NCBI GenBank assembly: GCA_038858525.1 | Contig: JAWCFL010000003.1 | Coordinates: 88,105 to 120,104, forward strand | DNA from: Candidatus Jordarchaeales archaeon | Lineage (GTDB): Archaea; Asgardarchaeota; Jordiarchaeia; Jordiarchaeales; Freyrarchaeaceae | Direction: 5' to 3' | DNA: 32,000 nt | Position numbers and translations under genes: made by a program | Notes under the pieces: generated by a model | Told to the model about the DNA's origin: nothing | The model's database searches: none | The model's input: only the letters and a program-made list of their open reading frames with translations | Part shown: one piece after another, positions 6,720 to 18,922 of the stretch | How the letters are laid out: each line of letters starts with the position of its first letter | Position numbering within the stretch: the stretch's first letter is position 1

Positions 6720-8969
<2,250 letters not shown>

Positions 8970-8980
8970 ACATTTTCATT

Positions 8981-9541
8981 TCATTGTCCAATTGGCTGAT
9001 TAACTGACCTTTTGCTTTTTCTATAAAGAATTAAACCAGTAGCTGAGAATATGCATGCCGGGGAAAAGCACACAATGAAAATTAGGCATGAAATGTAAAC
9101 ATCAAGGGGAAAGAGGGCCTGCAAGAGGTAGGGTGGGAAAAACTGAGTTACAGTATAGGAGTTCAGGAGGGGGCGGAGGAAGAGATATGCTAAAGGAAGT
9201 GTGGAAAGGCTCCCCAAAGATAAACCCATTTTAACTAGTTGCAAACCAATTCGTTCCGCCCTCTGGAATAGAAGAAACTTTTCTTCTAGGTTTTCCGCCA
9301 CCTGCCTAGAGTAAATAAGCACACATAATGCACATGAAAATGCAAGTAAAATTCCGCCTATTGTTGCCATGTAGAGGAGTTCTGACGGCATAGGAAAGGC
9401 GTGTGCTGTTAGGTAAGCGGCAAATGCGGTTGTAACTCCTAGAGACGAGGAAGCAATACATATGAAAAATACTTTAGTCCAATGATCAACGGCGCTAGAA
9501 TGACGCAAAAGTCCCGCCTCCAGAGGCAGATAAACCAACAC
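8981..9541 (-). CDS. Hypothetical membrane protein (about 4 TM segments)
   Basis: Four long hydrophobic stretches; fills the gap between cdc48 and the tRNA without overlap. Confidence 0.6.
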   Translation of the reverse strand: MLVYLPLEAGLLRHSSAVDHWTKVFFICIASSSLGVTTAFAAYLTAHAFPMPSELLYMATIGGILLAFSCALCVLIYSRQVAENLEEKFLLFQRAERIGLQLVKMGLSLGSLSTLPLAYLFLRPLLNSYTVTQFFPPYLLQALFPLDVYISCLIFIVCFSPACIFSATGLILYRKSKRSVNQPIGQ

Positions 9542-9637
9542 TTAAATCAAGGATAAAAGTTTTTCTAGAAAAAGCCGACGATGGCTTTCACACCAAAAAA
9601 TTATAAGGGCGAGTTTAATAAACATTAAACCCGAATG

Positions 9638-9766
9638 GGGCTGGTAGCTCAGAGGCTGCCGCCGGGAAACTAGGTAGAGCTCCAAAGGAGCTCGCCTAAA
9701 GCGCCGGACTAAATATGGGTGAAGCTTTTAACCCGGCGGCCGCGGGTTCGAATCCCGCCCAGCCCG
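9638..9766 (+). tRNA. tRNA-Lys(UUU) with three introns (9653-9669 at 15/16, 9678-9699 at 22/23, 9708-9723 at 30/31)
   Basis: Acceptor GGGCTGG/CCAGCCC plus discriminator G, D stem GCTC/GAGC, anticodon stem CCGGG/CCCGG with loop CT-TTT-AA, T arm GCGGG-TTCGAAT-CCCGC. Removing 17+22+16 nt gives a 74-nt cloverleaf. CCA not encoded. Confidence 0.9.
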
Positions 9767-9949
9767 CTAATCTCCTTCTACGTTCTAAGTGAATGACCGC
9801 TTGTTTTGAGAGTGGAATCACATTATAGGCCCTTTGAGTGTTTTAGGAGGAGAAAAGAAAAAAAGATATATAGGAAGGAACGTTTTATTGACCGCATTTC
9901 CGGAAGGAGCTTTCTTACTTAAGTGTTCGTGGTGAAGAGGGGCTACGTT

Positions 9950-10417
9950 ATGCGAGACGGGGAAGTTGATGAGATTGACAGGAAAATTCTTTCGATTCTT
10001 CTTGATGATGGAAGAAAGAGTTTTAACGAGATTTCATTGATGGTTGGGGTTAGCACAGGGACTGTGGCGAATAGAGTTAGGAAGCTTATAGAGAGGGGGG
10101 TTATTAAGAGGTTTACCGTTGAACTGGATTGGAGGAAACTTGGTTTTGATGTTTTCGCCATTATTCTTATAGAAGCTGAGATCGGGAAAGTTAAGGATGT
10201 TTCTGAGGAGCTTTATTCTTATCCTGAAGTTGGTGAGGTATATACGGGTATTGGGGGGACGCCTCACATAGTAGCTTTTGTTAGAGCAAGTGAGGTTAAT
10301 GATCTTTTTTCATTCATGCAGAATAAAGTAGCTGTGCTTGAAGGAATTAAGAGTGTCCGCTCAGTAATAGTTGGTGAAAGTAGGAAAAATAAGTCGAGCT
10401 TAGATTATTCCTTCTAA
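9950..10417 (+). CDS. Lrp/AsnC family transcriptional regulator
   Basis: [54 protein letters not shown] plus C-terminal RAM domain; ATG at 9950 preferred to GTG 9923. Confidence 0.93.
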
Positions 10418-13400
10418 CTTTATCCTTGGGAAGATGCACATTGACATCAGTTCTTGAACGAGTAGTTTGAATGCATAACTTACCACTGTTTTCGAGATGC
10501 GAGCCTTTTCGCCGCAAATTGGGCAGTATAGTTTTCTGTTTTGCGCTTGGACTGCTAGTGCACCGCACTCTTCGCAAATGTAAATTTCTGTTCTGTCGGA
10601 CTCGTCTACGAGTTTTTCTTTGAGTAGTAAGGCTGCACCCATTCCTATTAGGCAGTCGCGTTCCATCTCTCCGAACCTTAATCCGCCTTCTCTCGCTCTG
10701 CCTTCTGTTGGTTGTCTGGTTAGGATCTGTATTGGTCCTCTTGAGCGGGAGTGCATTTTGTCTGCTACCATGTGGTGTAATTTCTGGTAATAGACGACAC
10801 CTATGAATATGTCTACCTCGTACTTTTCACCTGTAACGCCGTTATACATAACCTCTTTTCCGTTATACTTAAAACCTAGATTTTTAAGTTCTTGGCATAG
10901 GTCTTCTGGCTTTTCGCCGCAAAACGCGGTTCCATCTATTTTTCTTCCTGCTAGGCAGCCAACTTTTCCAGCGAGAGATTCTATTATTTGTCCCAAGGTC
11001 ATTCTTGACGGGAACGCGTGGGGGTTTATTATGAGGTCAGGGACTATGCCATCCTCGGTGAATGGCATGTCTTCTTGCGGAACGATCATTCCTATTACTC
11101 CTTTTTGCCCGTGTCTTGTTGCAAACTTGTCTCCCAGTTCAGGTATTCTTTGGTCTCGGATCTTAACTTTTACAAGACGGTTTCCGTCTATGGTTTCCGT
11201 GAGTATTACGGTATCTACCGTACCTTTTTCTCCATGTCTTATGTTTATCGAAGTTTCTCTTCTTATTGGAGCTGTAACTTCGAATTCCGCTCTTTCCTCG
11301 AGAAATCTTGGCGGGCTTGTTCTGCCAATTATCACTTCGCCTCCCTCTACTTCTGTTTCAGGTTCAACTATGCCGTCTTCAGAGAGGTGCCTGTAAACTT
11401 CAGACTGCCTGTGCCCTCTAACTTTTTGATCGGGTATTTCAAACTTGTCCTCTTGTCCTCCGGGATATTTCCTTTCTTCTGCTTCGTAGCACCTGAAGAA
11501 GAAGGAGCGGCCGATGCCACGCTCTATTGATGCTTTATTTATTATTAACGCATCTTCGATGTTATATCCTTCATAAGATAATACAGCAACTATGAAGTTT
11601 TGCCCTGCAGGTCTTTTCTCGAAGCCGGATACCTTAGTAACTTTGGTGGTAACTATTGGGAGCTGAGGATAGTGAAGAATATGTGACCTTGTGTCCATTC
11701 GAAGTTTGTAGTTTGAAGCGAAGAGCCCTAGAGCTTGCTTGGCCATTCCCGCTTCGTAAGTGTTCCTTGGGCTTTGATTGTGTTCAGCGTAAGGTATTAT
11801 TCCGGCGGAGATGCCTAGAATAGTTATTGGCGCAATCTCCAAGTGAGTGGTTTCTTCATCGATGTCTTCTGGGTTTAAAGCAACATATACGTTCTCTTCT
11901 TCTTCTGCGTCGAGATATTCGACTATTCCTCTCCTAACTAAATCTGTAAATGACCATTCTCTTCTTCTTAGTTTCTCCACATGCTCCGATTTAAGCTTTG
12001 GAGCTCCATTTTCAACGATTATATATGGACGCCTAACGCGTCCTGCATCGCAATTGATCTGGACCTCGTTAGAGTCGTCGTAATATGCTATGTTTACTTC
12101 ATTATTAATTACGCCTGACCTTCGGAGTTCTCTAACGCGTTTTACAAATGTTTCCGGATTATCGTGGAAACCTATTAACCTACCATTTAGAAATACCTTG
12201 GCACCTTCGACGCCAGCTATTTTGCCGAACTCTTCTATGGGATGGAGGCCGAGTTCTACCAGTTTATTTTCAACTTCACTTTCGTCTATTCCCACGGATA
12301 TGTAAGCTAGTAAAGCAAGGTTTTTCACGAGGCCACAGTTGGGTCCTTCAGGTGTTTCATTAGGGCATACTTTACCCCAGTGAGTTGGGTGTAAGTCTCG
12401 GGCTTCAAAGTGTGGCTGACTGCGACTTAGTGGAGAGGTAACACGTCTAAGGTGGCTTAGGGATGCCATATAGTTTGTTCTGTCTAGGAGCTGGCTTACA
12501 CCGGATTTCCCACCCACCCAGTTTCCAGTAGCGAGTGCATGGTAGAATCTGTCAGTTATTACGTCAGCGCGCACCGCGTTGGCTATGCTACGCCGTTTTC
12601 CTCTTGCCGCTATCCTTTCTAGTTGGTATTTTATGTCTTTGCACAGGTTTAGGAATGCAACTCTAAACAGGCTCAACAGTAAGCTGCCCGCTAACTTAAG
12701 GCGCTTATTAGCATAGTGGTCTTTATCGTCGGGTCCTCTTTTCTTTAATGCGAGTTCTATAAGGCGCTGGGCCATCTGACCCAAATAAAACGCCTTTTTT
12801 AAGCGGAATTCAGGCTCTGTTCCTATGTGGGGTAACAAGTACTTATCTAGAACTTGCTCTGCACGCTTGATTCTGTAGTCTCTAGTCTGGCCAACTGCAA
12901 CTCGCTTTCCTATGTAATCAAGAGCATCCTCCCTTGTGGATAATGGCGAGGCTTCATCTATTGAAAGTATGAACTCGTTGAGTATTTCCGGGTCACTAGA
13001 ATCAATAGTGCTTGCCACTTGCTGATCCGTTACTAATCCAAGAGCACGTATTAAAACAACGAGAGGTATTTTCCCGGGAACTGAGGGGAAGGATACTTTT
13101 ATGGTTCCGTCCCGCCTTCGTTCCATTGTTACTGGCGCCCTGAAACCTCTAGCAGTACTAAAAACCTTAGCTATGTGAGTTACGGGTCCACTTTTATCTA
13201 GCTCCTCGACGAGAATCCTATTTGGAGCTAGGTCTTCTTGTGTGACGAGAACCCTTTCTGACCCGTTTATTATGAAGTATCCTCCAGGGTCATCTGGGTC
13301 TTCGCCTATTTCGACTAATTCTTCTCTACTCATATTTGAGAGAGGACATTTTACTGATTTTAGCATAATTGGTAATTGGCCTATGTAGACTTGAACAGGC

Positions 13401-13744
13401 TCTTCTTCTATTTCTCTTCCGTCTCCTTTGTGTACTAAAGACATTTCTAAGTATATTGGGGCGGAGTATGTGAGATTTCTTATTCTTGCCTCAGCGGGGG
13501 TTATAGGGTTTCGTGATCCATCAGCTTCCTTTATGGCGGGCTGTCCTACCTCTATTTTCCCCAATTTTACGTAATAATTTTCGCCTTCAATCTCTATTTT
13601 GCCTACTTCGTCCACTACGGATTGCATACCATGTTCTATAAAGTCATTGTATGAGTCAAGGTGTTGACGAACCAAGCCTTTTTCTTCGAGGAATGCTTCA
13701 ACTACAGTCCATCTTTCCTCGATAGTTAAGTGGTGATCAGACAT
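10400..13744 (-). CDS. rpoB: DNA-directed RNA polymerase subunit B (Rpo2, unsplit)
   Basis: [69 protein letters not shown]-terminal CEECG...CPICG. ATG at 13744 (MSDHHL) has a GGTGG RBS; the track's 47-codon extension is probably spurious. Confidence 0.98.
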
Positions 13745-13918
13745 GAAAACCACCCTTATTTTTCTAAGATTTAGGGGAACATAGCTACAATAATTTGTAT
13801 GTAGGTAAGCTTTTAACGTCTCTTCTTCGAAGATGAAGCTAGGGAAAAAGGAGTATTGAAGAAGTATAAAATCTTTTTGGGACAATAGTCTTAAGTGGAG
13901 TGGATGGTAAGGAAGGAT

Positions 13919-18176: not shown

Positions 18177-18922
18177 TGCATTAAACCGGGAAAGTAATAT
18201 TTTTCTCCATACGCATAACTTTCTTCTTTTCTGGCAATACCGCTTTCCTCTAAAGCTTTTAATGCACGTTCAGCCCTTTCTTTCGACCACCCAGTTTTCA
18301 CCATTAATTCTTCCAACGTAATAGATCCTTTTCCACTGACTAAGCCTAATACTTCATTCTGGTCGTCATTCAACTCGGCTGGAATAAAGACTGCAATTTC
18401 GACGCCCGACTTAAGCCGCAACAAACCAGGGATCACTCGTTTTTTCTCTAACTCCTTAAGAGCGCGCCTGACATCGTCCATCTTGACTTTATCTTTTAAC
18501 CTGCCTGTGCTTGCTAAAAGGTAAACCTCTCCAAGAGATAGAACTCCGCCTGTCTCCTTACGCTTAAAGAGCGCACGTTGATAGATCAGCAAACCAAGTT
18601 TTTCATGATCCACACTTTCAGATAGGCCAAACATCTTCCTCTTTAATACATCTTCTTCTTTTACTACTTGAGTTATGACTGCTTCTGCAGGTATCCCATA
18701 CTTTTCTCTTAAAAATTCTACTTCGCTTCGGAATTTAGGACTAGTTGCTATAATAACGCCGTATTTTTCGGCGATGTCGGCTATTTTCTCTTTGACAACC
18801 ATAGCGGTTTCGAGCTCCTTCTCTAGCTCCTCTAGCTTCAACTCTGCAGCTTTTTTTTCCATGCTCCTCTTCTTTTCTATTCTCTCACGTATCTCGCGAA
18901 GACCCAAACAGACCCCCCTCAT
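18173..18922 (-). CDS. ESCRT-II Vps22/36-like (EAP30) protein
   Basis: SPKFRSEV, EKLGLLI...TGGVLSLGEV, DDVRRALKEL, PAELNDDQNEVL, GWSKERAERALKALEESG, YYFPGL parallel Snf8/Vps22 along the full length. Confidence 0.88.
   Translation of the reverse strand: MRGVCLGLREIRERIEKKRSMEKKAAELKLEELEKELETAMVVKEKIADIAEKYGVIIATSPKFRSEVEFLREKYGIPAEAVITQVVKEEDVLKRKMFGLSESVDHEKLGLLIYQRALFKRKETGGVLSLGEVYLLASTGRLKDKVKMDDVRRALKELEKKRVIPGLLRLKSGVEIAVFIPAELNDDQNEVLGLVSGKGSITLEELMVKTGWSKERAERALKALEESGIARKEESYAYGEKYYFPGLMH

Follow-up and report, generated by a model that had tools for sequence, protein, structure and literature searches.

Three predicted non-canonical introns in a tRNA-Lys(UUU) gene of a Jordiarchaeaceae Asgard archaeon

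Introduction

Which nucleotides of a heavily interrupted tRNA gene reach the mature molecule, and how can this be decided at a locus that standard tRNA searches do not recognise? The question is raised by positions 9638-9766 (+) of a 32,000-nt stretch of archaeal DNA, referred to here as the window. Over the full 32 kb of the window, ARAGORN with default settings did not report a single tRNA, and at the locus no match was obtained with the Rfam tRNA model, either at its gathering threshold or at E values up to 10. The original prediction had read there a tRNA-Lys(UUU) with introns at the non-canonical positions 15/16, 22/23, and 30/31 and none at 37/38, and had warned that scanners may miss or miscall such a gene.

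The genome that contains the window (G000) presents Asgard signatures, among them a eukaryote-like actin (466 bits) and an ESCRT-II EAP30 homologue; the host is an Asgard archaeon of the Jordiarchaeia, family Jordiarchaeaceae, in the order that also holds Freyarchaeum. Introns occur in 92-95% of the tRNA genes of Freyarchaeia and Atabeyarchaeia genomes, often several per gene and at non-canonical sites (Valentin-Alvarado et al. 2024, PMC11291895). Jordiarchaeaceae and Freyrarchaeaceae are the focal families of a preprint of October 2026, which gives about 2.0-2.4 intervening sequences per tRNA gene, with up to five in one gene; according to it, tRNAscan-SE frequently overlooks inserts in the D-arm, most genomes encode two EndA paralogues, and nothing points to the copying of introns (10.64898/2026.10.13.758758). 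Positions 15/16, 22/23, and 30/31 are not listed in the accessible portions of two reviews of archaeal tRNA introns (PMC4090602, PMC4033280).

Results

A script parse divided the locus into four exons (15, 8, 8, and 43 nt) and three inserts (17, 22, and 16 nt), all read on the forward strand. According to the parse and the ARAGORN cloverleaf, exon 1 (9638..9652) supplies tRNA positions 1-15, that is, the 5' strand of the acceptor stem, positions 8-9, the 5' strand of the D-stem, A14, and G15, and is followed at 15/16 by intron 1 (9653..9669), a relaxed BHB. Exon 2 (9670..9677) contains the D-loop from C16 to G22, including G18 and G19, and ends at intron 2 (9678..9699), inserted at 22/23. Exon 3 (9700..9707) runs from A23 to G30 and thus comprises the 3' strand of the D-stem, G26, and the first four nucleotides of the anticodon stem; intron 3 (9708..9723) interrupts that stem at 30/31. 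Exon 4 (9724..9766) provides G31, the anticodon loop CTTTTAA, uninterrupted at 37/38, the 3' strand of the anticodon stem, the variable loop, the T-arm, the 3' strand of the acceptor stem, and the discriminator G.

The joined exons gave a 74-nt molecule that ARAGORN folded into a perfect, fully paired cloverleaf of tRNA-Lys(ttt), and introns made up 55 of the 129 nt of the gene (43%), in agreement with the intron share and product length first proposed. All hallmarks of an elongator tRNA-Lys(UUU) were present (anticodon loop CUUUUAA, G18 and G19, T-loop TTCGAAT, the G15-C48 pair, and a 7-bp acceptor stem). CCA was absent from the 3' end of this tRNA-Lys(UUU) gene, where CTA was found instead. 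A split or permuted tRNA gene was rejected, as the four exons are collinear inside 129 nt. With a probability of about 0.9, we consider window 9638-9766 to be the single functional tRNA-Lys(UUU) gene of a Jordiarchaeaceae Asgard archaeon with three introns, predicted to be spliced by EndA and RtcB; the identity and intron positions of the original prediction are backed by intron-free homologues, nine orthologues, and the splicing enzymes encoded in the genome.

Upstream of the gene, an extra G at 9637 was assigned to the leader and is missing in relatives. A candidate archaeal BRE/TATA promoter was recognised from a reading of the sequence in an A/T-rich stretch at 9595..9622 (+), 16-43 nt upstream of the gene (AAAAAATTATAA, TTTAATAAA); the proximal part of this stretch was kept only in the same-genus orthologue. 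Neighbouring genes in the window include a Cdc48-type double AAA ATPase (6723-8969, +), an Lrp/AsnC regulator just downstream of the tRNA gene (9923-10417), an unsplit RNA polymerase subunit B of 1161 aa (10400-13885, -), and the ESCRT-II EAP30 homologue (18233-18895, -; 66 bits).

The warning about scanners proved justified for ARAGORN and for the Rfam tRNA model. When introns were allowed, ARAGORN called the locus with one false intron of 58 nt, and the Rfam tmRNA model caught only the T-arm of the gene, in exon 4. Over the 2.09 Mb of the genome, the Rfam tRNA cut-off was reached 5 times and ARAGORN with introns allowed made 11 calls; the three genes that were read (Lys-UUU, Lys-CUU, and Asn-GUU) each had at least two introns. 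Taken together, the few scanner calls and the three genes read indicate, indirectly, that most tRNA genes of this genome are interrupted. Second copies of the three introns were looked for by BLAST and none was found in the genome, where matches stayed at chance level (15 nt or less). Both the scarcity of scanner calls and the lack of second intron copies agree with the preprint (10.64898/2026.10.13.758758). A regular-expression search for introns of the 22/23 type throughout the genome was dropped, the pattern being too loose and returning mostly matches in coding sequence.

Homologues without the inserts allowed the exons to be compared with uninterrupted sequence. The spliced D-loop (AGCTAGGTA) does not differ from that of the Lys(CUU) paralogue of the same genome, where it is uninterrupted, and inserts 1 and 3 were absent both from this paralogue and from a compact, intron-free Lys(UUU) gene (L005) that belongs to another Asgard family. 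Aligned to L005, the joined exons presented 64/75 identities, with a single gap, in the D-loop. The Lys(CUU) gene, located approximately at G000:C1:147000-147180 (-), gives a precursor of 126 nt that contains two introns, one of 22 nt at 22/23 (ending in GCCTAT) and one of 30 nt in the T-arm, its anticodon stem and D-loop being uninterrupted at 30/31 and 15/16, respectively. ARAGORN accepted many alternative deletions in the T-arm of Lys(CUU), so that a match with this program is by itself a weak test of boundaries, and the case for the boundaries is founded on the homologues and on motif geometry. In tRNA-Asn(GUU), at G000:C12:59860-60040 (+), a 13-nt intron at 22/23 with the same AGGT/GCCT central helix was observed, plus T-arm inserts; since Lys(UUU), Lys(CUU), and Asn(GUU) share the 22/23 site, this site recurs in at least three genes of the window genome.

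The splice motif was scored at the exact boundaries as four central (H) pairs and two 3-nt bulges, each 3' of its own H strand, with the cut after the second bulge nucleotide. Intron 1 displayed the central helix GCTC/GGGA, with three of four pairs formed (G10 faces A), bulges AGA and AAC, an outer helix of 2 bp, and an inner one of 3 bp (GGC/GCC). Intron 2 displayed the helix AGGT/GCCT with four of four pairs (one of them G-U), bulges AGA and AAA, a single outer pair, and an inner 5-bp hairpin offset by 2 nt (TC). Intron 3 displayed the helix CGCC/GGTG, again with all four pairs and one G-U, bulges GGA and AAG, an outer helix of 4 bp, and an inner one consisting of a single C-G pair. Each helix and bulge listed in the original prediction was re-found by this geometry check. 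Strict BHB geometry was fully matched by intron 3; in intron 2 the 5' bulge faces two unpaired nucleotides and can close into a helix, and intron 1 falls one central pair short. Such relaxed BHB forms are described for (alpha-beta)2 enzymes. All three introns had at least one flanking helix beside the central one, counting the offset hairpin of intron 2.

At random exact boundaries (400,000 boundaries in the window genome), a motif of the intron-1 class occurred by chance in 0.3% of cases and one of the intron-3 class in 0.05%, four central pairs alone being found in 2.2%. For introns 1 and 3 the cloverleaf sets the boundaries on its own, because any shift alters the product, and with motif classes this rare the coincidence of these boundaries with the motifs is far beyond chance. 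Intron 2 begins with AGC, which equals exon positions 23-25, so that four pairs of cuts, from 22/23 to 25/26, give an identical product and its boundary is ambiguous by sequence. When we examined the shifted registers, only 22/23 combined a central helix of 4 bp with correctly placed bulges of 3 nt. Local folding energy was significant for the hairpin of intron 2 (z -4.5), the motifs of introns 1 and 3 being no better than shuffles.

The equivalence of the four cut pairs leaves room for a gene with the same product but another exon-intron structure, with intron 2 displaced to one of the sites from 23/24 to 25/26, or with only part of the D-arm insert removed and an enlarged D-loop retained; the published tRNAscan-SE call for Freyarchaeum, which takes out only 10 nt of the D-arm, is of this second kind. 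We hold such a structure to be improbable, given the unique motif register at 22/23, the change of product that follows any shift of introns 1 or 3, the identity between the spliced 9-nt D-loop and that of Lys(CUU), and the fact that a D-loop about 20 nt larger has no counterpart among the compact homologues. The structure with introns at 15/16, 22/23, and 30/31 was used for the comparison with relatives.

Eleven genomes of the order, covering Jordiarchaeaceae and Freyrarchaeaceae, were searched and nine of them hold Lys(UUU); the two lacking it have completeness values of 73% and 83%. In all nine orthologues an insert of 16-30 nt was present at 15/16 and one of 12-30 nt at 30/31, with diverged sequences, and removal of the inferred introns yielded tRNA-Lys(ttt) in 8/8 orthologues that were fully parsed. 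The third intron varied in location. That at 22/23 occurred in Lys(UUU) only in the three Jordiarchaeaceae (G000, which is the window genome, G002, and G004) and was absent from the six Freyrarchaeaceae; in its place, five Freyrarchaeaceae genomes presented a 30-nt intron at 53/54, and the sixth (G005, L042), a species of the same genus, had its third intron in the 3' strand of the anticodon stem or in the variable region. A pattern anchored on the exons, run over the sequence collection, retrieved one extra record only, with the same sequence as G004. The public record of the G004 orthologue (JAPDJY010000056.1, L031) is titled 'Thermoproteota archaeon'; this label is probably wrong, as its kinship to the published Freyarchaeum genome places it among the Asgard archaea.

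The helices of the introns were kept while their sequences changed. The hairpin of intron 2 covaries across the three Jordiarchaeaceae genomes (GCTCC/GGAGC, GCTA/TGGC, and GCAT/ATGC). In intron 3, the central helix changes its third pair from G-U to G-C within the family, and the inner helix is full, with 5-6 bp, in the Freyrarchaeaceae copies. In the central helix of intron 1, an identical G10-purine mismatch appeared in all nine orthologues, which indicates a tolerated conserved feature and not decay.

These comparisons bear on whether the gene is a decaying pseudogene, with AAA codons for lysine read by another tRNA. The Freyarchaeum orthologue is marked 'possible pseudo' in a published table and the window genome is 92.7% complete, so that a further copy could be unassembled; no second Lys(UUU) gene was found in that assembly. 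Decay of the gene is, in our judgement, very improbable: its exons are invariant in three species of two genera (G000, G002, and G004), whereas the introns differ in their loops and have diverged with compensating changes; in addition, all cloverleaf pairs are intact and the locus is kept across the order. Fusion of unrelated fragments during assembly or binning has to be considered for a metagenome draft of 63 contigs. We attach almost no probability to it, as DNA contigs from three separate hot-spring studies match without base differences, one of them spanning all 401 bases of window 9500-9900 and another the whole gene, and the same architecture is found in two other genomes (G002 and G004). 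The three independent DNA contig matches carry the unspliced form of the gene. The DNA runs that hold at least half of the sampled words of the stretch were all hot-spring metagenomes or runs filed under a coded organism name. The contigs of a metatranscriptome (X14) contained 40% of the words of the surrounding 4 kb, and the sole contig on window 9500-9900 was a T-arm cross-match from another organism; these contigs thus did not reach the locus, showed no joints, and are neutral as to splicing.

The published Freyarchaeum genome offered a direct comparison with a published gene call. Its table lists tRNA #5 of Freyarchaeum deiterrae as Lys TTT at 1427332-1427497, with three tRNAscan-SE introns and the 'possible pseudo' mark (PMC11291895, Supplementary Data 4). 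In the closed genome G006, of the same order as the window genome, Lys-TTT was found at 1427332-1427496 (L037, equivalent to L008:1418-1582), matching this published tRNA and supporting the placement of the host in the Jordiarchaeia, and the published introns at 1427392-1427421 and 1427445-1427474 coincided exactly with the boundaries inferred here for 30/31 and 53/54. Removal of 29 nt at 1427347-1427375 left a normal 9-nt D-loop and a clean tRNA-Lys, and comparison with the Jordiarchaeaceae suggests that the D-arm intron of this gene consists of 29 nt at 15/16 and not of the 10 nt published. Like the window gene, that of Freyarchaeum has three introns with none at 37/38, an identical 30/31 site with the same central-helix logic, and an insert after G15; unlike it, it has no intron at 22/23 but one in the T-arm at 53/54, longer introns (29-30 nt) with full inner helices, and an encoded CCA.

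Enzymes for the processing of such introns were encoded in the window genome. Two EndA paralogues were found, both with N- and C-terminal domains. The 191-aa EndA alpha (G000:C3:81835-82338) was most similar to the catalytic subunit, alpha, of the Aeropyrum pernix enzyme (3p1z_B, E 1.6e-48). The catalytic His (replaced by Ala in 3ajv) and the flanking motifs with Tyr and Lys are retained in it, as is a loop containing Lys that aligned with the crenarchaeal specific loop. This loop has been tied to cleavage at non-standard positions (PMC3241643, PMC5829648). The second paralogue, of 198 aa (G000:C43:5750-6235), aligned to the EndA of M. jannaschii with Ala at the position of the catalytic His, and it is therefore taken as a structural beta subunit. 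The EndA type, to which the original prediction had pointed as a check, came out as (alpha-beta)2, with a catalytic alpha subunit that bears the loop and a beta subunit that lacks the His; as judged from these two protein sequences, it is the crenarchaeal, broad-specificity type. RtcB was also encoded (601 bits).

Folding of the precursor was modelled by nearest-neighbour methods. The 3' part of intron 1 (GCCGCCGGG, window 9657-9665) was perfectly complementary to 9732-9740, which correspond to tRNA positions 39-47, and in the minimum-energy fold of the precursor it paired over 9 bp with these positions of the 3' exon, the 5' cut site of intron 2 being enclosed in a 7-bp helix. The conformer with the three splice motifs was modelled at -34.7 vs. 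-68.2 kcal/mol for the minimum-energy fold. The three motifs tile positions 8-35 and share A17a alone, so that all of them could in principle form together. When all splicing intermediates were folded, the central helix of intron 2 always formed and that of intron 1 never did (probability 0.00); the helix of intron 3 depended on the presence of intron 1, with modelled pair probabilities of 0.3-0.87 with it and 0.04 or less without it. Nearest-neighbour ensembles of the Freyrarchaeaceae genes did not show the splice motifs either; given that these folds miss the motifs in that family too, they weigh little against splicing. Complementarity of intron 1 to positions 39-47 reached 9 bp in the window genome and 6 bp in the sister genus, and the pairing energy between intron 1 and the 3' exon amounted to -26, -24, and -20 kcal/mol in the Jordiarchaeaceae vs. 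-10 to -14 kcal/mol in the Freyrarchaeaceae.

Discussion

From the observed gene anatomy, its conservation, and the set of enzymes, the cleavage and ligation of this tRNA and their order can be proposed as follows. Transcription would give a precursor of about 129 nt, whose 5' half (positions 8-35) may refold into three adjacent hairpins, each a BHB or a relaxed BHB built in part from exon nucleotides: intron 1 would draw on the 5' strand of the D-stem, intron 2 on A17a-U20, a segment that includes G18 and G19, and intron 3 on C25-C28. The (alpha-beta)2 endonuclease would cut after the second nucleotide of every 3-nt bulge, and RtcB would ligate the four exons of 15, 8, 8, and 43 nt. RNase P and RNase Z would presumably trim the ends, with CCA added post-transcriptionally.

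As to the order of these events, the folding models raise the idea that intron 1 of the Jordiarchaeaceae acts as an intramolecular chaperone, with introns 3 and 2 leaving first and intron 1 last. By pairing with positions 39-47, intron 1 would free the 5' strand of the anticodon stem, which might then form the splice motif of intron 3. We put this forward as a speculative and rather unlikely proposal; alternatively, intron 1 may pair with the 3' exon simply as a consequence of the GCC and GGG that the motif requires.

Triple-intron tRNAs had at first been placed mainly in the Thermoproteales, a context that does not hold for this gene: the host belongs to the Jordiarchaeia, a lineage in which multi-intron and D-arm-intron tRNA genes are the documented norm, according to PMC11291895 and bioRxiv 10.64898/2026.10.13.758758. 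As nearly all tRNA genes of Jordiarchaeia are published as multiply interrupted, the gene is typical for its lineage; it contributes one more well-resolved example of what is already on record for Asgard archaea and does not represent a new kind. The multi-intron tRNA genes of Thermoproteales are similar in having up to three short non-canonical introns of BHB type and an (alpha-beta)2 EndA with a crenarchaeal-type loop (Sugahara 2007, 2008, reviewed in PMC4033280). They belong, however, to another phylum, and in them related introns recur between genes, which has been read as transposition (PMC4033280), whereas the introns of the window gene have no second copy.

The distribution among relatives makes the locus a small, readable intron history, with two introns as old as the order and one specific to a family. 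In our reconstruction, the introns at 15/16 and 30/31 would be older than the split of the two families of the order, and that at 22/23 would be limited, in Lys(UUU), to the Jordiarchaeaceae. The conserved mismatch in the central helix at 15/16 is informative on the tolerance of the EndA of this lineage.

For annotation, the gene is a clean test case on which two standard tools fail. The comparison with Freyarchaeum further suggests that the D-arm intron was called too short there and that the 'possible pseudo' mark on the gene is mistaken.

Outside the order, a Lys(UUU) gene of another Asgard family (G033, L012, minus strand near 665) was also observed to contain an insert of 17 nt, ending in GCCTAA, at 22/23 or immediately beside it; this insert could represent an old intron or repeated gain at one site.
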